64,000 nt of DNA from Candidatus Woesearchaeota archaeon (GTDB lineage Archaea; Nanobdellota; Nanobdellia; Pacearchaeales; GW2011-AR1). This document shows positions 2,626 to 50,633 of the stretch, one piece after another. A model generated the notes under the pieces. It was not told where the DNA came from, searched no databases, and was given only the letters and a program-made list of their open reading frames with translations. The stretch spans positions 205-64,204 of the forward strand of contig CAZBPV010000004.1 of assembly GCA_964493885.1 (NCBI GenBank). Reading direction: 5' to 3'. Position numbers and translations under genes: made by a program. Every line of letters starts with the position of its first letter. The first letter of the stretch is position 1.

Positions 2626-4338
2626 ATGTATTGGTTTTTATATCTTATGAAAAAACTGGTGGTTGAACTTCTAAGAAAAGCCTTAAAAGAGATGGATGTA
2701 AAACTCTCTGAAGAAGAGATTGAAAAAAGAATCGAAATCCCACAAAATCTTGAATGGGGAGATTACTCTTTTCCAACATTTTTTTTAACAGAGCAGACAA
2801 AAATGCTGCCTAATGAACTCTCAATTAAATTACGAGAGGAAATAGGAAACATTCCGCAAACAGATTTAGACGATGTTCAGAGTGTTGGAGGGTATGTAAA
2901 TTTCTTTGTCGACAGAAAAAACCTTGCTAGGAAAGTTGTATGGGAGGCAATCACTCAAAAAGCAAAGTTTGGAAGAAGCAAGTTAGGAGAAAAGAAAAAA
3001 ATAGTAATAGAATTTTCTTCCCCTAATATTGCAAAACCCTTTGGAATAGGGCATTTAAGATCAACTATTATTGGAAACTCTATCTCAAATATAGTTGAAT
3101 TTGTTGGATACAAGCCAGTGAGAATAAATTATCTTGGGGATTGGGGTACTCAATTTGGAAAATTAATTTTTGCTTTTGAAAAATGGGGAAATGAAGACAA
3201 ATTGCTTAAAGACCCCTTAAATTATCTTCAGAAATTATATGTAAAGGCAAATAAATCAAAAAAATTTGAAGAACCTTCAAGAGAGGCTTTTAAAAGACTT
3301 GAACAAAAAGAAAGAAAATGCCTTATGTTGTGGAAACTTTTTAGAAATTTAAGTCTAAAGGAATTCCAAAAAATTTACAAGACTTTTGATATTAAGTTTG
3401 ATGTTTATTCTGGGGAATCAGAGTCTGTAAAATATACTGATAGAGTTTTTAAGGAATTACAAACCAAAGAATTAATTAAAAAAAGCAAGGGAGCTTGGAT
3501 TGTAGATTTAAAAAAATATAACCTTGATATCTGTTTAATGCAGAAAACCGACGGCACAACTCTTTATGCAACACGAGATTTAGCAGAGGCTATACGAAGA
3601 TATGAAAAATATCCTTTTGAAAAAATGATTTATGAAGTTGGCCAGGAGCAAAAACTTTACTTCCAGCAAATATTTAAAATTCTTGAGCTCATGGGCTATG
3701 AGTGGGCAAAAAATTGCATACATGTTGACCATGGTTTGTATTTGGCTAAGGATGGAAAAAAATTTTCAACAAGAAGGGGAAAGACTGTTCTTATGGAAAA
3801 TATTCTAAAGAAAACAAAATTATTGGCAAAAAAAGAAATTAAAAAAAGATTCCCTAGCTTATCTAAGGACGAACTTGAAAAAAGAGGATTAAAAGTTGCA
3901 ATAGCTTCAATCTTTTACGGGGATCTTAAGAATAATAGAACCAATGATATGGTATTTGACTTGGATAAGTTTACTTCTTTTGAAGGAAATACTGGCCCAT
4001 ATCTTTTATATAGTTATGCTAGGGCAAGTTCTATTATAAAAAAAGCAGAAAATCCTAAAAAATTTGAGATTCTAGAATTAGAACCTAAAGAACTTGAGTT
4101 AGTTAAGGGATTATCTCAGTTTCAAGAGATAATAATAGATGCATTTGAACACTTAAACCCTTCAATAATCGCAAGTTATTCGTATCAAATCTGTCAGAAA
4201 TTTAATGATTTTTATCAAAACTGTCCGGTTATTGGTTCAGAAAACGAACCCTTTAGATTAGCTCTAGTAGAATCTTTCAGGCAGATTTTAAAAAATTCTC
4301 TTCATCTCTTGGGAATAAGTGTAATAGAGGAGATGTAA
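2626..4338 (+). CDS. argS: arginine--tRNA ligase
   Basis: SSPNIAKPFGIGHLRSTIIGN (class I HIGH region) and the overall ArgRS layout. The true start is more likely the ATG at 2647 (MKKLVVELL). Confidence 0.9.
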   Translation: MYWFLYLMKKLVVELLRKALKEMDVKLSEEEIEKRIEIPQNLEWGDYSFPTFFLTEQTKMLPNELSIKLREEIGNIPQTDLDDVQSVGGYVNFFVDRKNLARKVVWEAITQKAKFGRSKLGEKKKIVIEFSSPNIAKPFGIGHLRSTIIGNSISNIVEFVGYKPVRINYLGDWGTQFGKLIFAFEKWGNEDKLLKDPLNYLQKLYVKANKSKKFEEPSREAFKRLEQKERKCLMLWKLFRNLSLKEFQKIYKTFDIKFDVYSGESESVKYTDRVFKELQTKELIKKSKGAWIVDLKKYNLDICLMQKTDGTTLYATRDLAEAIRRYEKYPFEKMIYEVGQEQKLYFQQIFKILELMGYEWAKNCIHVDHGLYLAKDGKKFSTRRGKTVLMENILKKTKLLAKKEIKKRFPSLSKDELEKRGLKVAIASIFYGDLKNNRTNDMVFDLDKFTSFEGNTGPYLLYSYARASSIIKKAENPKKFEILELEPKELELVKGLSQFQEIIIDAFEHLNPSIIASYSYQICQKFNDFYQNCPVIGSENEPFRLALVESFRQILKNSLHLLGISVIEEM

Positions 4339-4396: not shown

Positions 4397-4783
4397 ATGG
4401 TTCAATGTAAAAAGATGAATGAAGAATTCTTCGCTAAATTGCATAAAGAGATAACTACAACTGGAGAATTGATAAGAGCTAGACAAGAAGAGAAACAAGG
4501 AATTTTAGATGATTTCACATCAGAGTCAAAAAGATTCTTTTTTGGTAAAATTTCTGAAAAATCTTTAGCAGCTTCAGTTAAAAAGACTAATGTTGAATTA
4601 ATGAGACTAGATGGAAGCATCAAAGCCTCAATCTCAAGGACAAAAAAACTTTGCGATGCAGTTAAGAACTTAGTCCAAAAACAATCTCCAATTCCATTTA
4701 GAGCTACAATCTCAGGAATATCTGGAGGAAGTTCTGGAAAATCTTCAAAGAAGAAATCAAGGAAGAAAAAGAAAAGGAGATAA
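4397..4783 (+). CDS. hypothetical protein with Ser/Lys-rich basic tail
   Basis: GGAGGT Shine-Dalgarno 10 nt upstream. Helical-looking N-terminal part and a KKKSRKKKKRR tail. Confidence 0.4.
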   Translation: MVQCKKMNEEFFAKLHKEITTTGELIRARQEEKQGILDDFTSESKRFFFGKISEKSLAASVKKTNVELMRLDGSIKASISRTKKLCDAVKNLVQKQSPIPFRATISGISGGSSGKSSKKKSRKKKKRR

Positions 4784-4785
4784 AG

Positions 4786-4830
4786 TTTTATTTTTTATTT
4801 TTTATTTTTTAATTAATTTTTATTTTATTT
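4786..4830 (+). terminator. run of oligo-T tracts (archaeal-type termination signals)
   Basis: TTTTATTTTTTATTTTTTATTTTTTAATTAATTTTTATTTTATTT lies directly after the stop codon at 4781-4783. Confidence 0.35.
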
Positions 4831-4892
4831 CTATTAAGCAAAATTATTTAAACTACATTATTATTAATTATTTATTAAAAAGGAGGATAGAA

Positions 4893-5126
4893 ATGGCAAA
4901 AAAAGAAAGCACACTCGGAAAAGTAGTTACTTTTGTTGCTTGGCTAACAGGAGTTATTGTATCATTGTCAGTAGGTTTTGCACTTGTTGATAAGGTTTTA
5001 ACTCTGCCTGCTTGGATGGGAGGCGCAACAGTAATTGGTGCAGGAATAGCTCAGACTGCAGGTTGGATTGTTATCTTAACAACTCTACTTGGGGCAATAC
5101 TGGTTATAGTTCACAAACTGCAATAA
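4893..5126 (+). CDS. small integral membrane protein
   Basis: GGAGGA SD upstream. Two clear hydrophobic helices in 77 aa. Confidence 0.5.
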   Translation: MAKKESTLGKVVTFVAWLTGVIVSLSVGFALVDKVLTLPAWMGGATVIGAGIAQTAGWIVILTTLLGAILVIVHKLQ

Positions 5127-5176
5127 ATATCTTTATTTTTATTTAGATTTTTAAACTTCTTATTTTTAAGTGTATC

Positions 5177-41495: not shown

Positions 41496-44400
41496 TTATT
41501 CGTATTTGTTTTTTAATTGGAATGTTGAGTGGATATGCAATCCCTGCAACTCTTCCAATAATAATTTAAATGCATATGAAACTTCAACATGTTCAACTGC
41601 TTCAGTTCCGCAAATTGGGCACAATGTTTTATCTCGTATGTTATCATCAATTCCAATTGCTCCGCACTTAGTGCAGATTGGAAGAATAATTTTATCTGAA
41701 TCATATCTCTCTTTAAGAAGCAAAGATGATCCATGAGCAACTAGTGCTTGCTGCTCCATTTCTCCTAATCTTAATGCTCCTCCTCTAGATCTACCTTCAA
41801 TTGGTTGTCTTGTAAGAAGTGCAATCTTACCAGAAGCCCTTCCATGAAGTTTGTTAGCAACCATATATTTAAGTTTCAAGTAATATAAGTTTCCTACAAA
41901 AATCTTTGAGATAATTCTTTTTCCAGTAATTCCATTATACATAGTCTCTTTTCCATCATATCTAAATCCTAATTCTTCTAATTGATTCTCCAACTCTCTC
42001 TTGCTTGCTCCAGAAAAAGAAGTACCGTCAATTACTTCTCCTTTAAGGCACCCTACTTTTCCTGCAAGTAATTCAAGCAGATAACCAACAGTCATACGGC
42101 TTGGAAGTCCATGAGGATTGAATAGAACGTCTGGCTTGATTCCCTTAGAAGTAAATGGTATATCTTCTTCAGGAATAATTGCCCCGATAACTCCTTTTTG
42201 TCCATGAGCTGTGGCAAATTTATCCCCAATTTCAGGGATTCTTAAATCTCGTGTCTTAACCTGAACAATCTTATTCCCTTCTTCATCTTCTGTTACGAAA
42301 ACAGCATCAACTGTTCCTTTTTCTTCCTGCCTCATTGTCACAGAAGATTCTTTCTTTGTTCTTACTGAGATTTCTCTAGCTTCAGATAAGAATTTTGGAG
42401 GAGACATTTTACCAATAATTACCTCTCCCTCATTTAGCTCTGCTTCAGGATAAATTATTCCATCACCTTCAAGATGTTTATAACTTATTTCTGTTTTGTA
42501 ACCTGAACTATCTTTTTCTGGGATAGCAATCTCGTCTTTTAATCCCCCTGCATAATTCATTTCAACTGCAGAATAAGGTCTGAAATAAAAACTTCTTCCA
42601 ACCCCTCTCTGAATGCTTCCCTTATTAAGGACAAGTGAATCTTCCATATTATATCCTTCATGAGTCATTATTGCTACAACTAAATTCTGTCCTGCTGGAT
42701 AAGTATTAATTGTGTCATAAACAAAACTTCTTACAATTGGTTTTTGAGGATACTGAAGTATACTTACATCAGTATCAAGTCTGCAAAGATAATTAGCAGA
42801 ATACAAACCAAGAGCTTGCTTCTGGGTTTTACTACCTCTATTTAATCTTGAACTTTGATCATGATTTCCATACGGAACAAGACTAGTAACTATCCCAAAT
42901 AAATCTATACTGTCTATTTCTAAATGAGTATGTTTTGGAGTTATTTCTTCTTCATATAATGCCACTAAAGAATTTTCTTCTTCTGCTGCATCAAGATACT
43001 CAATAACTCCTTTTTTAATTAAATCATCCCAACTCATTTGCCCTTGTTCTATCTGTATAAGATACTCGTTCTTCATTCTTGAGACTCCATTTTCAAGTAT
43101 AATAAGAGGCCTTAATGCTCTTCCAGGTTCAGTAGAGATTGTGATATTTTGAAGTTCAGTATCATTTCTTACATTCAACTGTATTGGAAGAATTCCTGCT
43201 CTTCTTTTATCTCTTATCTTAGAAACAAATTCTTCTACATTATTTACTGCTCCGATAAATCTTCCATTAAAGAAAACATCAGTTCCTGCTACTCCTTCAA
43301 GATTTAATCCATCATTTTGTAATTCTTTTAAGAATTTTTCCTCGTCTAAACCAGTTCTTGTTGAAATCTTGCAAAGAATTGCAAGATTTTTTCTAAGTCC
43401 AATTTCTGTTCCTTCAGGAGTTTCAATTGGGCAGAATCTTCCATAATGAGTAGGATGTAATGTTCTTGCAAGGAAATTTTCTTGATCTGATGGAAGCATA
43501 CTCGACACTCTCTGCAATTGAGAGATTGTAGCAAGATAATTTGTTTTATCCATATTTTGAGTAACTCCACTTCTCTCACCAGTCCAGCTTCCAGTAGCAA
43601 TAGCAGATTCAATTCTATGACTAAAAAGAGTTGATTTGGCAATAGTCTTTATTGAGTAAAATTTCTTTCTCTTTGATGATTTTTGAAGAGAATACTGAAT
43701 ATCTCTAAAGAGTATTCCAAGGTTTACTCTAAATAAGCTTGCAAGCAAGTCTCCTGAAAGTCTTACCCTTTTATTTGCATAGTGATCTTTATCAGTCTGT
43801 ATCTTTGGATTTTCCTTAGCAATCAAAAATTGTTTTATTAATTTGCATAGTGTTATAGCTTTTTTAATCCTGTCTTCTTTTTTTCCTCCAATATGTGGAA
43901 ATAAGTAAGAGTCAATTCTTTGTTTTACTCTGTCAAGAATCTCTTTTTTTGTTCCTTGAAGATTAGTCATCTCTGCTATTTTCACCATAGCATCTTCTTG
44001 ACTTGCAATACTTACAAACTCATAGAGATTTACAATAACACTGTCTGTTTCTTTTCCAATATATTTTGCAATGTCTGCTTCTTTTATAAGTCCAAGAGCT
44101 TTTAGAATGATTACTGCAGGAATATCTCTAAAACGAGAAAAAGAAACCTCTAAAATTCCCTCTTTGCTTTCCTTAATTGTAGTAGGGATTCTGTATGTTC
44201 CTCTTAAGGAAAATACCCTTAAAGTAAGTATACCTTTTTTATCTTTTTCAATAAATGGCTGATTTTCTGCAAGGTCTTCTGCCATAACCATAACTCTTTC
44301 ATTACCATTAATCATAAAGTATCCCCCAGGATCCATTGGGTCCAGATAGTTTTTTATCATCTCTTCTTTTGACATTTTGAATGTATTGCATATTTCACTC

Positions 44401-44753
44401 TTAACCATAACTGGTATCCTTCCAATTTCAACAACTTCTGAATCAACTTGGTCATCTTTTTTAACTGTCAATTCCATTGTTATTGGAGCAGAATAAGTAA
44501 GATTTCTTAATCTAGCTTCTGTTGGTGTAATCATAGAAGAACTTCCATCTGCCTCTATTACTTGTGGTCTTCCAACTTCCATCTTTCCAAGAGTAATCTC
44601 AAAATCTTCACTAATCATGCTCTCAGAAATCTCAGTTACTATTTCTTGAAGTCTTTTTTTAATGAAATTATTATAAGAAGTTATATTTGATTCAACTAAT
44701 GAATGTCCTTTAAGATAATTCTTTACAACTAAATGATTTATGTCTTTAACCAT
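41496..44753 (-). CDS. rpoB: DNA-directed RNA polymerase subunit B (unsplit)
   Basis: Conserved RpoB blocks (GYNMEDS, ATAHGQKGV, GEMEQQAL, C-terminal Zn ribbon CTKCG...CPICG). 1-nt gap to rpoA. Confidence 0.95.
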   Translation of the reverse strand: MVKDINHLVVKNYLKGHSLVESNITSYNNFIKKRLQEIVTEISESMISEDFEITLGKMEVGRPQVIEADGSSSMITPTEARLRNLTYSAPITMELTVKKDDQVDSEVVEIGRIPVMVKSEICNTFKMSKEEMIKNYLDPMDPGGYFMINGNERVMVMAEDLAENQPFIEKDKKGILTLRVFSLRGTYRIPTTIKESKEGILEVSFSRFRDIPAVIILKALGLIKEADIAKYIGKETDSVIVNLYEFVSIASQEDAMVKIAEMTNLQGTKKEILDRVKQRIDSYLFPHIGGKKEDRIKKAITLCKLIKQFLIAKENPKIQTDKDHYANKRVRLSGDLLASLFRVNLGILFRDIQYSLQKSSKRKKFYSIKTIAKSTLFSHRIESAIATGSWTGERSGVTQNMDKTNYLATISQLQRVSSMLPSDQENFLARTLHPTHYGRFCPIETPEGTEIGLRKNLAILCKISTRTGLDEEKFLKELQNDGLNLEGVAGTDVFFNGRFIGAVNNVEEFVSKIRDKRRAGILPIQLNVRNDTELQNITISTEPGRALRPLIILENGVSRMKNEYLIQIEQGQMSWDDLIKKGVIEYLDAAEEENSLVALYEEEITPKHTHLEIDSIDLFGIVTSLVPYGNHDQSSRLNRGSKTQKQALGLYSANYLCRLDTDVSILQYPQKPIVRSFVYDTINTYPAGQNLVVAIMTHEGYNMEDSLVLNKGSIQRGVGRSFYFRPYSAVEMNYAGGLKDEIAIPEKDSSGYKTEISYKHLEGDGIIYPEAELNEGEVIIGKMSPPKFLSEAREISVRTKKESSVTMRQEEKGTVDAVFVTEDEEGNKIVQVKTRDLRIPEIGDKFATAHGQKGVIGAIIPEEDIPFTSKGIKPDVLFNPHGLPSRMTVGYLLELLAGKVGCLKGEVIDGTSFSGASKRELENQLEELGFRYDGKETMYNGITGKRIISKIFVGNLYYLKLKYMVANKLHGRASGKIALLTRQPIEGRSRGGALRLGEMEQQALVAHGSSLLLKERYDSDKIILPICTKCGAIGIDDNIRDKTLCPICGTEAVEHVEVSYAFKLLLEELQGLHIHSTFQLKNKYE

Positions 44754-44813
44754 TTTTAATCTCCAATTTAAAATGATTTTTACAAAATTTTCTAAATTTT
44801 AGTTTAACCATAT

Positions 44814-45020
44814 TTAAACAACCACCCTGTAATAGACAAAAGTATTGTCTCCGTCCTTCCTTTCTATCTTTATTATATCTCCAGGGTTACATGCTTCAGG
44901 CAATGCAGCGTCAGTAATTAGTATTTTTGGAATTTGTGACTTAGAAACATTCAATTTTTTTAATAAATTATCAGATTCTTTTTCATTGAGTTTAGAATGT
45001 TTTGGCTGTAGAATGTGCAT
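44814..45020 (-). CDS. rpoH: DNA-directed RNA polymerase subunit H (Rpb5 C-terminal domain)
   Basis: HILQPKH..L...E...LLKKLNV...QIPKI...D...........GDIIKIER motif. Lies upstream of rpoB. Confidence 0.85.
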   Translation of the reverse strand: MHILQPKHSKLNEKESDNLLKKLNVSKSQIPKILITDAALPEACNPGDIIKIERKDGDNTFVYYRVVV

Positions 45021-45476: not shown

Positions 45477-45800
45477 TTATATATAGTTTCCTAGCTTTTC
45501 TTCTAAATCATCTTCAGACATCGAGCCAACAAACTGCTCCACTACTTTTCCATTCTTAAATAATACAAAATTAGGAATAGAACTTACATTATGCTTCTGG
45601 GCAAGTTCTTGACTCTCTCCAACATTCACTTTTCCGAATTTTATCTTCCCCTTGAATTTATCACTTAACTCTTCAATTATTGGAGTCATCATCATGCAGG
45701 GCATGCACCACTCTGCAAAAAAATCAATTAATACGACTCCCTTACTCACAAATTTTTCAAATTCTGCATTTGATACATCAGGAACTTTGTCATTTGCCAT
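45477..45800 (-). CDS. trx: thioredoxin (variant active site WCMPC)
   Basis: Thioredoxin-fold length with FFAEWCMPC. Last gene of the nrd cluster. TTTATAAA box at 45831-45838. Confidence 0.85.
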   Translation of the reverse strand: MANDKVPDVSNAEFEKFVSKGVVLIDFFAEWCMPCMMMTPIIEELSDKFKGKIKFGKVNVGESQELAQKHNVSSIPNFVLFKNGKVVEQFVGSMSEDDLEEKLGNYI

Positions 45801-45843: not shown

Positions 45844-46548
45844 TTAAATTCGTATATCCACACTTTCAAAAGAATTATCTATTATCTGCTTTAAATCACA
45901 AAGATACTGTTCTTTTGTATCCTTTACTTTTTTATACTTATTGTTAATAAACTTGCCCTGATTCTTAAAGCCCTGCAAAACAAATTTTTTTGGCTTTCCA
46001 GCACATAATCTATTCAGCCACTTAGCTATATCCTCTATTTCTATTTCATTATGAATATCTTCTATTATTGTTGTTCTAAATTCATAATAATCCAGCAAAG
46101 AGGAAATAATTTTTATGCTCTTTTCAATTTTTTTCAAATCTATTTCTGAATTAGTTATTTCATTGTATTTGTCTTTTCCAGATTTTATATCCATAGCAAC
46201 ATAATCAATTAAACCTTTTTTAATTAATTCCTCTAAAAGTTCTGGGAAACTCCCATTTGTATCCATCTTAATGGAATAACCCAAATCTTTTATATTTTTT
46301 AAGAAGTTAACATCAATAGTTAATAATGGCTCCCCTCCTGTAATACAAACACCTTCTAACTGCCCTTTTCTTTTTTCTAAGAAATCTAAAATCTCTTTTT
46401 CAGTATAATCTTTTCCTAAAGGTGATAGAACTAGTTCAGGATTATGGCAAAATCCGCATTTAAAATTGCAGCCAAACAAAAATATTGTGCATGCAAGTTT
46501 TCCAGGATAATCTATTAGTGTGAATTCTTGTAATCCTTTTATTTTCAT
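45844..46548 (-). CDS. nrdG: anaerobic ribonucleotide reductase activating protein (radical SAM)
   Basis: The FGCNFKCGFCHN CxxxCxxC cluster motif and GGEPL. Lies immediately downstream of nrdD. Confidence 0.85.
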   Translation of the reverse strand: MKIKGLQEFTLIDYPGKLACTIFLFGCNFKCGFCHNPELVLSPLGKDYTEKEILDFLEKRKGQLEGVCITGGEPLLTIDVNFLKNIKDLGYSIKMDTNGSFPELLEELIKKGLIDYVAMDIKSGKDKYNEITNSEIDLKKIEKSIKIISSLLDYYEFRTTIIEDIHNEIEIEDIAKWLNRLCAGKPKKFVLQGFKNQGKFINNKYKKVKDTKEQYLCDLKQIIDNSFESVDIRI

Positions 46549-46556
46549 TTTTCCTC

Positions 46557-46691
46557 CTACTCTGTTGCATTTTGTCCAGCTTTGAATGTCACCCTATCAT
46601 CAAATTCTGCTTGTTTTCCGTCATTCCACTGACTGACTGGACGCAAGTAACCACAAACTCTTGAATAAACCTCACATTCTGTTCTTTTCAT
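46557..46691 (-). CDS. stand-alone NrdD C-terminal glycyl-radical peptide (44 aa)
   Basis: Own translation: MKRTECEVYSRVCGYLRPVSQWNDGKQAEFDDRVTFKAGQNATE. It contains the class III RNR glycyl-radical signature (YSRVxGY.RPV..WN.GK..EF.DR). GGAGGT SD 7 nt upstream. It is below the ORF-track size cut-off. Confidence 0.7.
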   Translation of the reverse strand: MKRTECEVYSRVCGYLRPVSQWNDGKQAEFDDRVTFKAGQNATE

Positions 46692-46704
46692 TTTTTACCT
46701 CCTT

Positions 46705-49700
46705 TTATATTCTAACCGGAGAATCCGGTCTGATTTCTTTTAATTTTAATCCTTGAATAGCATCCATTGTCTGAGCTCTGTCTGCTATATCCATCTTATT
46801 TCCTTCTGCTTCTTGTTCATTTTGCTCACCATTTTCTAAATCACATTTAGGGCAAAATCTATGCTCTCCTGCAAGATACCCGTGTTTAGGGCAGATTGAG
46901 AATGTTGGAGTTATTGTAAAATACGGAAGTCTGTAATTTTCTGCAATTTTTTTAACTAATTTTTTAACTCCTTCTTTTGTGAGTTTCTCCCCGATAAATC
47001 CATGGAAAACTGTTCCCCCTGTATACTGAATCTGGACATCATCCTGCAAATCTAATGCAGCAAAGATATCACTAGTAGAATTAACTGGAAGTTGAGTTGA
47101 ATTTGTATAATAAGGTTTGGCATTTCCTTCTCTAACAGCCCTTTCATTTGCAACAATTATTCTTCCAAATCTCTTTTTATCATTTCTTGCAAATCTGTAA
47201 GTAGTTCCTTCTCCAGGAGTTGCTTCAAGATTATATATATTGCCTGTTTCATTCTGGAATTCTTCAAGTTTTTCTCTCATAAATTTTAATACTTTAAGTG
47301 TGAATTCTTTTCCCTTTGGAGTTGAGATATTTTCTCCAGGCATAAAATTCATTATTGCTTCATTCATCCCAATCAAGCCAATAGTAGCAAAGTGATTCTT
47401 CCAATAATCTCCTACTTTTTGCTTTACAGCCCTGAGATAAAATTTTGAATACGGATATAACCCTCTTTCTGTAAATCTTTCAATAGCTTTTCTCTTTATT
47501 TCTAAACTTTCTTTTGCAATCTCCATTAATCTTGAGAGTCTGTTTAAAAAATCCTCTTCAGTAAGAGAAGTGAATCCAAGTCTTGGCATATTTATTGTTA
47601 CAACTCCTATGCTTCCAGTTAGAGGATTGCTTCCAAATAAACCTCCCCCTCTTTTTCTCAATTCTGTATTATCTATACGCAACCTGCAGCACATGCTTCT
47701 TGCATCTTCAGGTTTCATATCTGAATTTATGAAATTTGAAAAATACGGAATCCCATATTTAGCAGTCATATCCCAAAGAGAATCATATTCTGGATTATCC
47801 CATTCAAAATCTTTGGTTATATTATATGTGGGAATAGGGAAAGTAAATACTCTTCCATCTGCATCACCTTCAATCATTGCTTCTGCAAATGCTCTGTTAA
47901 TCATTTCCATTTCTGGTTTAAATTCTTTATAAGTTTCTTTTTGAGGTTTTCCGCCGATAATTACTGGTTCATCTTTCATATAATTTGGAACCTCTAAATC
48001 CATTGTTATGTTTGTAAATGGGGTTTGAAAACCGACTCGTGTAGGAACTGCAAGATTAAATAAAAATTCCTGCATTGATTGTTTTACTTCCTTATAACTC
48101 ATATTATCATATCTAACAAATGGAGCAAGTAATGTATCAAAATTTGAAAATGCTTGTGCTCCTGCAGTCTCTCCTTGGAGTGTATAAAAGAAATTAACTA
48201 GTTGTCCAAGAGCAGTCCTAAGATGTTTTGGAGGTTTTGAAGCAACTTTTCCAGCAACTCCTTTAAATCCTGTTACAAGCAAATCCTTTAAATCCCAGCC
48301 GACGCAGTTTCCAGAAACTACTACTTTTCCATTCCTCATAACAATTAAAGTGCTGTTTCTAACTGAAAAGTCATAGACCCTGCCAGAATATTTTTTCTTA
48401 ATAACTTTCCCACGATAAATTGGAGTTAAATGATTATTTTCAACAGACACAAGATAAATATTCATACCCTTTCTTCTTGTAATTGTTCCACAAATTCCGA
48501 TTTTTAATAAACATTCAACAACATCTTCAGCTAATTTTTTTGATTTAGTGTAATACTTTAAAAATTCTCCCTTGTTGGAGAACGACCCATCTCCTTTGAA
48601 TAAACTAGTTAAGAACATTTTAATCAACTTGGGATTAAGTTCTTTGATGTTGTCTGGCACATATTTCTCTCCAGAAACCCCAAATTTTTTGAGATAGTAG
48701 AATAAATCTTTTGAATGTAGATGAATATTAAACTCTGAAGAATTATTATGATTTAACTTCATTTTGTTTAACAGTTTTAATATCTCTTCTCTATAGCTCT
48801 TTTTTAATTGTGCGATGCTTATACGATAATCTCCTTTAGACGGTTCATAAACTGACCCTTCAGAAAGATACCATCCCATAAATTCTACATAGTCTTTTAT
48901 ATCAAAACTTCCAATATCTTTCTTGCGATTTCCTCCTTCTATTATAGGAAGGTTAAACTTTTCAGGAGATTTTCCTTCCCAAGAGACTCGCTTATCAAAT
49001 TCCATCCCATATCTAAACTCTGTTGGATTCACAAATTCCCACACTTTTTTATGTTTCTTTTTAACTAAAAGACGATGTTCTGGAGTAACACATAAAGAAA
49101 CTGCTCTTCCTTCAAAAGAATACATCTCTTTATTGTAATTATAAACTTGCTTAGCATAAGGAACTTGAAATTCCAATCTCCCTGTTTTTAGGTTTTTAGT
49201 TGCAACCTTTTCATGAGTTTTAACATCCTTAAATAACTTCCACCCATTTTCAGTTAATATCTTGGTTTTATTATCAAAGCAGTATGCGCCAAGAGTTCCT
49301 AAATCATGAATATGTAAATCACATGCTTCATGAGCTTTTCTTATTGCTTCTGGATAAATTCTTCTTATCCAATAGTTATTAATTATCTTTGTTGCAATAT
49401 AATTATTTAATCCTTGTAAAGAAAACCCCATGTTTGAATTTTCTTTTACCATCCAGTCATTTAATCCAATATAATCATCAACTACCTCAATAGTGTCAAA
49501 GAGTCCTTTAATATTTCTTAATTCTTCATGGCTTTTTCTGTAAAGAATATATGCTTTTGCTACTTTTGCATGCCCTTCTTCTATTAAGAGCTTCTCAACC
49601 ATATCCTGTACTTCTTCAACTTCTGGAATATCATTCTGCCCAAACCTCTCATCAACTTGTTTCACAAGCATATCTGAAAGTTGTTTTGACCTGTCTCTGT

Positions 49701-49803
49701 CTTTTCCTCCAACTGCTTTTGCAGCTTTCCAAATAGCTTCAGTAATTTTTTCTGCATCAAATAGAACTACACTTCCATCCCTCTTTCTTATTTTTTTCAC
49801 CAT
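46705..49803 (-). CDS. nrdD: anaerobic ribonucleoside-triphosphate reductase large chain (with intein, lacking the glycyl-radical motif)
   Basis: N-terminal ATP-cone (KRDGSVVLFDAEKI), HIHDLG..AY|C(intein)|CVGWDL, the C-terminal Zn motif CPKHG...CPKCD. The ORF then ends after a non-conserved acidic tail. Confidence 0.9.
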   Translation of the reverse strand: MVKKIRKRDGSVVLFDAEKITEAIWKAAKAVGGKDRDRSKQLSDMLVKQVDERFGQNDIPEVEEVQDMVEKLLIEEGHAKVAKAYILYRKSHEELRNIKGLFDTIEVVDDYIGLNDWMVKENSNMGFSLQGLNNYIATKIINNYWIRRIYPEAIRKAHEACDLHIHDLGTLGAYCFDNKTKILTENGWKLFKDVKTHEKVATKNLKTGRLEFQVPYAKQVYNYNKEMYSFEGRAVSLCVTPEHRLLVKKKHKKVWEFVNPTEFRYGMEFDKRVSWEGKSPEKFNLPIIEGGNRKKDIGSFDIKDYVEFMGWYLSEGSVYEPSKGDYRISIAQLKKSYREEILKLLNKMKLNHNNSSEFNIHLHSKDLFYYLKKFGVSGEKYVPDNIKELNPKLIKMFLTSLFKGDGSFSNKGEFLKYYTKSKKLAEDVVECLLKIGICGTITRRKGMNIYLVSVENNHLTPIYRGKVIKKKYSGRVYDFSVRNSTLIVMRNGKVVVSGNCVGWDLKDLLVTGFKGVAGKVASKPPKHLRTALGQLVNFFYTLQGETAGAQAFSNFDTLLAPFVRYDNMSYKEVKQSMQEFLFNLAVPTRVGFQTPFTNITMDLEVPNYMKDEPVIIGGKPQKETYKEFKPEMEMINRAFAEAMIEGDADGRVFTFPIPTYNITKDFEWDNPEYDSLWDMTAKYGIPYFSNFINSDMKPEDARSMCCRLRIDNTELRKRGGGLFGSNPLTGSIGVVTINMPRLGFTSLTEEDFLNRLSRLMEIAKESLEIKRKAIERFTERGLYPYSKFYLRAVKQKVGDYWKNHFATIGLIGMNEAIMNFMPGENISTPKGKEFTLKVLKFMREKLEEFQNETGNIYNLEATPGEGTTYRFARNDKKRFGRIIVANERAVREGNAKPYYTNSTQLPVNSTSDIFAALDLQDDVQIQYTGGTVFHGFIGEKLTKEGVKKLVKKIAENYRLPYFTITPTFSICPKHGYLAGEHRFCPKCDLENGEQNEQEAEGNKMDIADRAQTMDAIQGLKLKEIRPDSPVRI
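48307..49281 (-). mobile_element. intein (325 aa) with LAGLIDADG endonuclease domain in NrdD
   Basis: Starts at Cys175 (CFDNKTKIL) and has block B TPEH. LAGLIDADG blocks are FMGWYLSEGSV and FLTSLFKGDGS. Ends VVSGN, followed by +1 Cys. Removing it restores AYCVGWDL. Confidence 0.8.
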
Positions 49804-49821: not shown

Positions 49822-50190
49822 TTATTTAACAATCTTTTTAGCCTGCTCATCACCACTCCACTTAATCATGCTTCCACCTCTTCTTGCATCTTCAATAGTA
49901 AAACCATTAGGGTACCTTTGCCTTAATTTTTCAATATTTTGCTCTAATATTTCTTGCATATCCCACTTAAAAAAATTGCAGATCATAGCAGCATACCAAA
50001 GCATATCCCCAAGATTCTCTTTAATGCCATCTTTCACATCATTTTTATGAGCAAAAGTTTTTTTGATGCAAGAAGCAACATCTCCTGCCTCCCCTGTTAT
50101 CCCTAATCCCCAAGTAGCTATTTCAATCTCAGGGTTTTCAAATTTCTTTGCAGTTAATTTAGCAACCTCTTGATACTCTTTTAAATTCAT
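49822..50190 (-). CDS. MazG-like nucleoside triphosphate pyrophosphohydrolase
   Basis: GLGITGEAGDV...ENLGDMLWY EExxE/D-type helical NTP-PPase motifs. 4-nt overlap with nrdR. Confidence 0.7.
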   Translation of the reverse strand: MNLKEYQEVAKLTAKKFENPEIEIATWGLGITGEAGDVASCIKKTFAHKNDVKDGIKENLGDMLWYAAMICNFFKWDMQEILEQNIEKLRQRYPNGFTIEDARRGGSMIKWSGDEQAKKIVK

Positions 50191-50633
50191 TCTATATTTA
50201 TCTCCTTTAATTCCTTTTTAAAATCTTGTATATCCTGAAAGTCACGATAGACTGATGCAAATCTTATGTAAGCAACATTGTCTATTTTCTTTATTTTTTT
50301 AATAACCATTTCTCCTATTAAGGAACTGTTAATCTCTTTTTTCCCTTTTTTTCTAAGTGCATCTTCAATATCATCTACTATTTTTTCTATTTTTTCTTTA
50401 GATATTGGACGCTTTTCAAATGCTTTTTCAATGCCTTTTTTTAGTTTTTCTCTTTCAAACTTCTCTCTTCTGCCATCTTTTTTTATTACATATAAATCTT
50501 CATGGCTTATTTTTTCATAAGTAGTGTATCTTTTTTTGCAACCCAAGCACTCTCTCCTTCTTCTTATCCCTTCTGGAGAACTTCGTTTATCAGTTACTTT
50601 TGATTCAATGCTTGAGCAAAAAGGACAGTCCAT
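50187..50633 (-). CDS. nrdR: NrdR-type transcriptional repressor (Zn ribbon plus ATP-cone)
   Basis: CPFC...RRRRECLGCKKRYTTYE Zn ribbon, and the ATP-cone with VAYIRFASVYRDF. Confidence 0.85.
   Translation of the reverse strand: MDCPFCSSIESKVTDKRSSPEGIRRRRECLGCKKRYTTYEKISHEDLYVIKKDGRREKFEREKLKKGIEKAFEKRPISKEKIEKIVDDIEDALRKKGKKEINSSLIGEMVIKKIKKIDNVAYIRFASVYRDFQDIQDFKKELKEINIE

Follow-up and report, generated by a model that had tools for sequence, protein, structure and literature searches.

A predicted two-polypeptide class III ribonucleotide reductase with the glycyl-radical loop on a separate 44-amino-acid subunit in a Woesearchaeota contig

[quoted passage not shown] In phages, nrdD genes are known that contain introns or inteins (PMC3653736), and RNR variants split into separate genes have been reviewed for class I (Aeromonas phage Aeh1) and class II (NrdJa/NrdJb) only (PMC3267527). 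Among glycyl-radical enzymes, no class other than the formate lyases has small spare-part proteins according to a review of June 2026 (PMC13450708). Here we describe the nrdD locus in a 64,000-nucleotide stretch of contig CAZBPV010000004.1 from a Candidatus Woesearchaeota archaeon (assembly GCA_964493885.1), hereafter called the window. In this locus nrdD is divided into two open reading frames (ORFs), a large one (NrdD-L) and one of 44 amino acids (aa) that carries the glycyl-radical loop (NrdD-S). We consider it very probable that the window encodes a genuine, obligate two-polypeptide class III RNR with the radical on the small subunit. To our knowledge, glycyl-radical enzymes are thought to keep the radical on the chain that holds the active site, the one known exception being the pyruvate formate-lyase (PFL) repair protein GrcA.

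Gene structure of the split nrdD

The archaeal contig is low in GC (31.6%), and the RNR cluster lies wholly on the minus strand, to which all coordinates of the window given below refer. NrdD-L (46705..49803, 1032 aa in the ORF list) matches the Pfam profile NRDD (PF13597, E 2e-177) with 591.7 bits against a cut-off of 26.2, covering profile positions 55-529 of 562 and ending at aa 989, and it matches NF006126 with 1029.8 bits (cut-off 548). It possesses an ATP-cone (aa 4-94, Pfam E 5.4e-22), the finger loop SMCC (aa 703-706, within SMCCRLR, aa 703-709; 47677..47697) and the zinc-ribbon ligand motif CPKHGYLAGEHRFCPKC (aa 971-987; 46843..46893), which reads CPKH...CPKC, provides a Cys/His/Cys/Cys set and aligns with the zinc ribbon of T. 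maritima NrdD. The finger-loop cysteines C381/C382 are invariant in an alignment of 97 homologues, and a thiyl-radical role is predicted for them from sequence. The zinc ribbon is the last conserved element of NrdD-L, which has no glycyl-radical loop.

Behind the zinc ribbon NrdD-L continues into an acidic tail of 45 aa (46708..46842, isoelectric point 4.4) and ends at a TAA stop (46705..46707). An initial annotation of the window, made from the sequence, had described a large ORF with ATP-cone, barrel and zinc motif that stops at 46705, in agreement with the Pfam and sequence data. It had also described the tail as about 46 aa long, acidic and non-conserved; the acidic character was confirmed, the length is 45 aa, and the tail is not without conservation, as close relatives share motifs in it. 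These motifs, D-x-E-N-G-Y/F, ANRAQxMDA and DSP, are represented in the window by DLENG (46822..46842), ADRAQTMDAI (46756..46785) and PDSP (46717..46728). Across split-type homologues the tail ranges from 8 to 94 aa, and a Pfam scan of the 45-aa tail gave no match and no Hint domain. A small perfect hairpin, ACCGGAUUCUCCGGU, is located at 46711..46725 (minus strand), just before the NrdD-L stop and overlapping the conserved PDSP codons.

The stop of NrdD-L is followed by an intercistronic spacer of 13 nucleotides (nt), AAGGAGGTAAAAA (46692..46704), with the Shine-Dalgarno sequence GGAGG at 46698..46702, and then by the ATG of NrdD-S (MKRTECEVYSRVCGYLRPVSQWNDGKQAEFDDRVTFKAGQNATE; 46557..46691), which is in a different frame from NrdD-L (16-nt offset). 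NrdD-S matches positions 531-562 of 562 in NRDD (E 1.2e-11) and 549-580 of 581 in TIGR02487. The family profile is thus tiled by the two ORFs, 55-529 by the large and 531-562 by the small one, with neither overlap nor gap. NRDD is the only Pfam match of NrdD-S, and no homology to Gly_radical (PF01228) was found. The glycyl-radical motif is not on the same polypeptide as the zinc ribbon, no second glycine motif was present in the 64 kilobases (kb) of the window, and the two ORFs jointly provide this class III feature. The TAG stop of NrdD-S (46557..46559) abuts the GGAGG ahead of nrdG (46552..46556; nrdG ATG at 46548). The separate 44-aa ORF with the glycyl-radical signature, its own Shine-Dalgarno and new ATG after a 13-nt gap, and its stop at the Shine-Dalgarno of nrdG had all been pointed out in the initial annotation, and each was recovered here.

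All invariant positions of the NrdD glycine loop are kept in NrdD-S (C6, E7, S10, R11, G14, Y15, W22, N23, K26, E29 and R33), including Gly14, whose GGT codon (46650..46652) lies in the loop motif RVCGY. The core of NrdD-S is under purifying selection, with a non-synonymous rate (dN) of 0.11-0.31 and a synonymous rate (dS) of at least 0.74 or saturated. All 30 small subunits that were aligned have Cys6 (in CEVYSR; codon 46674..46676), as do most fused relatives. A role of this residue as a fourth zinc ligand bridging the subunits is unlikely, since NrdD-L has its own Cys/His/Cys/Cys set like T. maritima, and since Ala or Thr occupies the position in some split and fused relatives that retain the His. 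Pfam and NCBIfam hold no dedicated model for the small subunit, which carries the NCBI name 'anaerobic ribonucleoside-triphosphate reductase'. The same 44-aa peptide is found as an exact copy in the NCBI record HJX50098.1, from a metagenome-assembled genome (MAG) of Candidatus Nanoarchaeia.

Fused relatives read CPxC-G-x-x-CEVYSRVVGY, with 3-8 residues from the zinc ribbon to the strand of the glycine loop. One of them (P0137) is 88% identical to a split NrdD and has the same nrdR-nrdD-nrdG-trx synteny. Pairwise DNA alignment of the window with this fused relative (locus L239) gave a single clean indel of 151 nt (46687..46837, with boundaries that could shift by a few nt with the alignment), which comprises the tail codons, the TAA, the Shine-Dalgarno and ATG AAA. 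NrdG is colinear between the split and fused loci (234 aa, 77% identity, no gaps). As the zinc ribbon of T. maritima NrdD lies between the last barrel strand and the glycine loop, the break is placed by alignment at the boundary of these two domains, with a zinc site predicted to be whole in NrdD-L. No homing endonuclease gene or intron was found at the break, where the spacer has 13 nt and the tail is devoid of Pfam domains. A second copy of the 151-nt cassette was not present in the window, although 64 kb is a weak test; with neither a second copy there nor a Pfam domain, an origin from a mobile element is unsupported.

In a rough neighbour-joining tree the split and fused forms interleave, and fused forms with a long linker exist (L014, P0152); together these point to repeated splitting or re-fusion. 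An alignment with the short peptides as extra rows was dropped, because MAFFT misplaced the peptides in the middle of the protein.

NrdD-L also contains a LAGLIDADG intein of 325 aa (aa 175-499; 48307..49281), which was recognised by Pfam (LAGLIDADG_3 E 8.3e-14, LAGLIDADG_WhiA E 1.2e-8) and by comparison with intein-free homologues, and which was missing from the initial annotation. The intein sits at LGAY/C...SGN/CVGWDL, about 490 codons upstream of the break between NrdD-L and NrdD-S, and its penultimate residue is Gly, where His is usual. Relatives possess zero, one or more nrdD inteins, and the large ORFs of L003, L004 and L006 measure 985-1655 aa.

The gene following NrdD-S is nrdG (45844..46548), which starts 8 nt past the small ORF and encodes a radical-SAM (S-adenosyl methionine) activase. 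It belongs to the NrdG2 type (TIGR02495 E 5.5e-59, 198.8 bits against a cut-off of 131.15; Radical_SAM E 2.9e-21). Next is a thioredoxin gene (45477..45800; active-site motif WCMPC, Pfam Thioredoxin E 1.2e-28), whose product is probably the reductant of the adjoining NrdD; a thioredoxin gene is in the same place in the fused relative L239. The first gene of the cluster is nrdR, the transcriptional repressor of RNR genes (50187..50633; Zn_ribbon_NrdR E 6e-16, ATP-cone E 2.3e-24). In L001-L004 and L239, nrdR is directly upstream of nrdD, whereas in the window a gene for a MazG-like nucleotide pyrophosphohydrolase (49822..50190; Pfam MazG E 7.8e-10) is found in between. Downstream of the cluster, at 41496..45020 (minus strand), an archaeal RNA polymerase subunit B (1085 aa) and a 68-aa RpoH/Rpb5-like ORF were recognised by eye. 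The fused relative L239 has an RNA_pol_Rpb5_C gene similarly placed, and synteny is therefore kept.

Distribution of the split in cellular genomes and phages

Searches with the peptide detected at least 255 clusters of stand-alone homologues, many of them on contigs of 50-265 kb, and all 120 of the listed ones are 39-75 aa long. An exhaustive profile search against 1.84 billion representatives gave 5122 matches, with 149 of the best 150 being 48-149 aa long. A peptide 98% identical to NrdD-S is encoded on a contig of the European Nucleotide Archive (ENA). Among the 120 closest relatives of the window NrdD, 114 end 8-94 residues past the zinc ribbon, and the remaining six are fused. Likewise, about 40 of 80 loci from GTDB species representatives are split. 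The initial annotation had asked whether related genomes carry the same stop and start, or whether all homologues are uninterrupted and this locus is a unique break; the arrangement recurs at these frequencies.

The split archaea among the 80 GTDB loci belong to the Woese-, Pace-, Nano-, Micr- and Aenigmarchaeota (DPANN). The split bacteria include many Patescibacteria and MAGs of Hippea, Spirochaetia, Anaerolineae, Thermotogae and Acetothermia; the cultured Halanaerobium saccharolyticum is also split. The order nrdD-L, small ORF, nrdG was observed in contigs of Patescibacteria and Aenigmarchaeota, and the order nrdD, nrdG, small ORF in H. saccharolyticum and a Bacillota MAG. The two genes are found in all three relative frames, with ends that overlap in some loci and are up to 187 nt apart in others. 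Many of the small ORFs have their own GGAGG and ATG; the GGAGG is present in many DPANN loci and absent from most loci of the candidate phyla radiation (CPR).

Several loci deserve separate description. H. saccharolyticum MA284_T2, a tractable cultured organism, has nrdD-L, nrdG and then a 52-aa peptide gene in locus L039 (2099..5129); L062 is another locus with this deviating gene order. In the Thermotogae/Acetothermia-type loci L042, L070, L080 and L083 (about 4930..5130), the two ORFs overlap, with the small one in another frame at the end of the large one. From back-translation of the overlapping protein frames, this small ORF would start at a TTG inside the large-ORF tail, with a GGAGG provided by conserved Gly-Gly codons of the tail. 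Peptides of this type have Ala instead of Cys before EVYSR and a conserved N-terminal extension, DGNLILEDGxxIPAExRQ. In L047 (Syntrophomonas palmitatica JCM 14374, 4779..5114) and L071 (Saccharicrinis), the break in nrdD is within the zinc ribbon or upstream of it, and the relatives are fused; unlike the conserved split, these breaks look like frameshifts or sequencing errors. Locus L063 (4749..5111; Thermodesulfobacteriota MAG, JBFLWU010000005.1) encodes an orphan protein of 120 aa with two CxxC pairs followed by an NrdD glycine loop (CEVYSRVVGYLRPVSQWNEGKQAEF) and with no adjoining nrdD or nrdG; L072 and the viral locus L097 are similar. A protein of this kind could serve NrdD as a GrcA-like spare with a zinc ribbon of its own.

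Relatives of the peptide are encoded by 225 stretches in IMG/VR. Within the best 80 of these 225 viral loci, 72 have no NrdD-L or NrdG homologue within 10 kb, and in 24 of the 72 the locus spans more than 95% of the contig. The orphan peptide genes among the viral loci L085-L238 are open frames of 39-128 aa on contigs of tailed phages. In L102 the peptide gene (4001..4120) is located between the genes for the terminase large subunit and the portal, and in L091, L166, L169, L185, L203 and L216 it likewise has terminase, portal, tape-measure or head-protein genes as neighbours. The neighbouring ORFs were scanned in 13 viral loci, of which seven have such phage genes and the other six gave no PHROG match. 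The phage peptides match cellular split subtypes: forms with KAEVYSR and the extension DGNLILEDG correspond to the Thermotogae/Acetothermia type, and forms with LSPVSEWN to the Halanaerobium/Bacillota type. This correspondence is the strongest indirect evidence that the peptide may act in trans with a host large subunit and activase. The orphan gene is probably an unrecognised, new auxiliary metabolic gene of phages, which annotation pipelines see as an NrdD fragment or a hypothetical protein.

Proposed mechanism and alternative explanations

NrdD-S is predicted to be translated as a separate protein, since the two genes occur in all frame relations, at variable spacing and, in Halanaerobium and the Bacillota MAG, with nrdG between them. 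As NrdD-L has no glycine loop of its own, NrdD-S would be an obligate subunit and not a spare. NrdD-L (1032 aa before intein splicing) would contribute the ATP-cone, a ten-stranded barrel with the Cys-Cys finger loop, and the zinc ribbon, while NrdD-S, translated from its own Shine-Dalgarno and ATG, would bring the C-terminal glycine loop with Gly14. For complex formation and activation we infer the following course. NrdD-S would dock non-covalently, with its glycine loop entering the barrel and facing the finger-loop cysteine, as judged by homology with fused NrdD structures. The neighbouring activase NrdG would take a hydrogen from Gly14 using SAM, the radical would move to the finger-loop cysteine, the ribonucleoside triphosphate would be reduced, and the adjoining thioredoxin would re-reduce the active site. 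In Prevotella copri NrdD, the glycyl-radical domain is highly mobile, and fully disordered when dATP is bound (PMC11226230); such mobility makes it plausible that a non-covalent loop enters and leaves the barrel. Compared with its fused close relative, the split state would have arisen by one insertion of 151 nt containing tail codons, stop, Shine-Dalgarno and start.

With the radical-bearing, oxygen-cleavable piece on a separate, cheap peptide, its exchange or supply in trans would be possible in principle. We tentatively suggest that the 44-aa peptide is a free, exchangeable radical-cofactor subunit, which NrdG charges and NrdD-L uses, and of which an oxygen-cleaved copy could be replaced without re-making an enzyme of about 700-1000 aa; tailed phages would inject a supply of it that sustains anaerobic deoxyribonucleotide synthesis in the host during infection. 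Beyond the formate lyases, it would be the first autonomous glycyl-radical cofactor. The phages that carry the peptide gene alone may exploit such supply in trans.

Some observations weigh against the proposed two-polypeptide enzyme. In many relatives the tail is only 8-11 aa long and hence dispensable there, and no specific assembly domain was identified in it. In the AlphaFold2 model of the split-type homologue P0122, predicted as a single chain, the tail has mostly a predicted local distance difference test (pLDDT) score below 50 and forms one short low-confidence helix over the ANRAQ motif. The single-chain AlphaFold2 model of the fused long-linker homologue P0152, computed from a 92-sequence alignment, has a confident barrel and a glycyl-radical domain (aa 671-734) with pLDDT below 50. 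Fragments or assembly artefacts may be among the short database entries; P0242, P0243 and P0247, with duplicated motifs, are possible examples. Furthermore, closely related fused and split forms coexist, which fits a near-neutral change as well as an adaptive one.

The last point leads to the possible, though rather doubtful, explanation that the split is selectively neutral: a cassette of stop, Shine-Dalgarno and start would be tolerated because the glycine-loop peptide binds tightly, and it would bring no benefit in exchange, repair or regulation. This explanation differs from the proposed two-polypeptide enzyme solely in why the split exists. It agrees with the interleaving of fused and split forms in the tree, with fused forms among very close relatives (six of 120, one at 88% identity), with the poorly constrained length and sequence of the tail across the family, and with an unchanged NrdG. 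The observed split forms are also mostly from DPANN and CPR lineages with small genomes, which are subject to strong genetic drift. However, in phages the peptide gene occurs by itself, often in the packaging or head region, which is hard to explain unless supply in trans is useful; moreover, the split is the majority state in the clade of the window (114 of 120) and arose in unrelated lineages with different gene orders as well. A further explanation, in which the peptide is not catalytic but a regulator or decoy that, for instance, titrates NrdG, with NrdD-L inactive or served by another radical source, appears very unlikely. Phage-borne copies could in principle inhibit, but the peptide keeps all conserved glycine-loop positions of NrdD, NrdD-L retains the catalytic core and finger loop yet no glycine loop, nrdG is retained alongside, and the two pieces together amount to one fused enzyme.

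Two ORFs that lie 13 nt apart in different frames of a MAG could also be the product of a sequencing or assembly frameshift, or of a decaying pseudogene, the true nrdD being continuous; isolated error-like cases do occur elsewhere, in L047 and L071. We give this explanation almost no credence, because the difference from the fused relative is an insertion of 151 nt and not an indel of 1 nt, hundreds of independent assemblies show the arrangement, with spacing and frames that vary, the peptide has an exact copy in NCBI and a 98%-identical one on the ENA contig, and the small ORF is under purifying selection. Hardly more probable is that a full-length NrdD is produced, either by programmed recoding (frameshift, stop read-through or ribosomal bypass) or by protein trans-splicing. 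The adjacent, tightly spaced ORFs and the small hairpin before the stop would suit such a process, and for trans-splicing there are a Cys after five N-terminal residues of NrdD-S and weak, non-significant matches between the peptide and DnaE split inteins in the PDB (E 0.2-0.4). Against recoding, frame offsets of 0, 1 and 2 all occur, the genes range from overlapping to 187 nt apart, nrdG is located between them in Halanaerobium and the Bacillota MAG, and phages have the peptide gene alone. Against trans-splicing, no Hint or intein domain was found in the tail, whose length varies from 8 to 94 aa and whose first residue is Asp and not Cys or Ser, and the peptide has just MKRTE before its Cys and no terminal His-Asn. 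A split intein was rejected on the same properties of the tail and on PDB intein matches with E of at least 0.2. With frames, spacing and gene order all variable, no model of frameshift, bypass or trans-splicing fits all of the arrangements.

Significance and comparison with known systems

If the window does encode a two-polypeptide class III enzyme, the set of split RNRs would be complete, with class III added to classes I and II. The enzyme would also offer a system to study the access of the activase to a glycine buried inside the barrel, with a loop that could be added, labelled or mutated in trans, and it would suggest how DPANN and CPR organisms with minimal genomes could cheaply repair an essential enzyme that is sensitive to oxygen. 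Length filters used in surveys have consequences for such enzymes: a large RNR phylogeny kept sequences of 400-1100 aa and discarded those below 400 aa (PMC9531940), which removes the small subunit, and surveys may score split NrdDs as truncated. In full-text literature searches we found no description of an NrdD with its glycine loop as a separate gene. This, and the review of June 2026 (PMC13450708), agree with the suggestion of the initial annotation that the arrangement had not been described for class III RNR. A split RNR with the predicted radical cofactor as the detached piece is widespread and apparently undescribed.

Compared with the canonical single-chain NrdD of phage T4, Escherichia coli, T. 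maritima and P. copri, the proteins of the window belong to the same families and keep the same order of ATP-cone, barrel, zinc ribbon and glycine loop. The activase is of the same type (NrdG2), and the zinc motif and double-Cys finger loop resemble those of T. maritima. In contrast to canonical NrdD, the large chain of the window ends after the zinc ribbon with an extra tail of 45 aa, and the glycine loop is the product of a separate 44-aa gene.

The initial annotation had drawn a parallel with GrcA/YfiD, which stands as a functional analogy and fails as family membership or as a spare, given that NrdD-L has no glycine loop of its own. Similar to GrcA/YfiD, NrdD-S would be a small separate glycyl-radical protein that uses the activase of the parent enzyme and acts in trans with a large barrel subunit. 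The phage-encoded counterpart of GrcA/YfiD is T4 Y06I. GrcA, of about 127 aa, is a member of the PFL-type Gly_radical family, whereas NrdD-S has 44 aa and is of the NRDD type. The PFL alongside GrcA also has a glycine of its own, which GrcA replaces solely after cleavage by oxygen, whereas NrdD-S would be obligate.

Aeromonas phage Aeh1 resembles the window in that the catalytic subunit of its RNR is encoded by two genes, NrdA-a and NrdA-b, with new C- and N-terminal tails at the break (PMC3045599), and these tails are needed for assembly (PMC3045599). The split in Aeh1 resulted from the insertion of the homing endonuclease gene mobE, which has been retained, and the split runs through the active site. 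In contrast, the split in the window has no endonuclease gene, a 13-nt spacer and a cut at a domain boundary, and it is widespread in cells. In the class II NrdJa/NrdJb of Pseudomonas aeruginosa, other gamma-proteobacteria and Thermus phage phiYS40, the barrel and a C-terminal module are encoded by two consecutive ORFs, and that split is conserved by clade. Unlike in NrdJa/NrdJb, the zinc ribbon of the window stays with the barrel, and the detached piece would be the radical cofactor itself.

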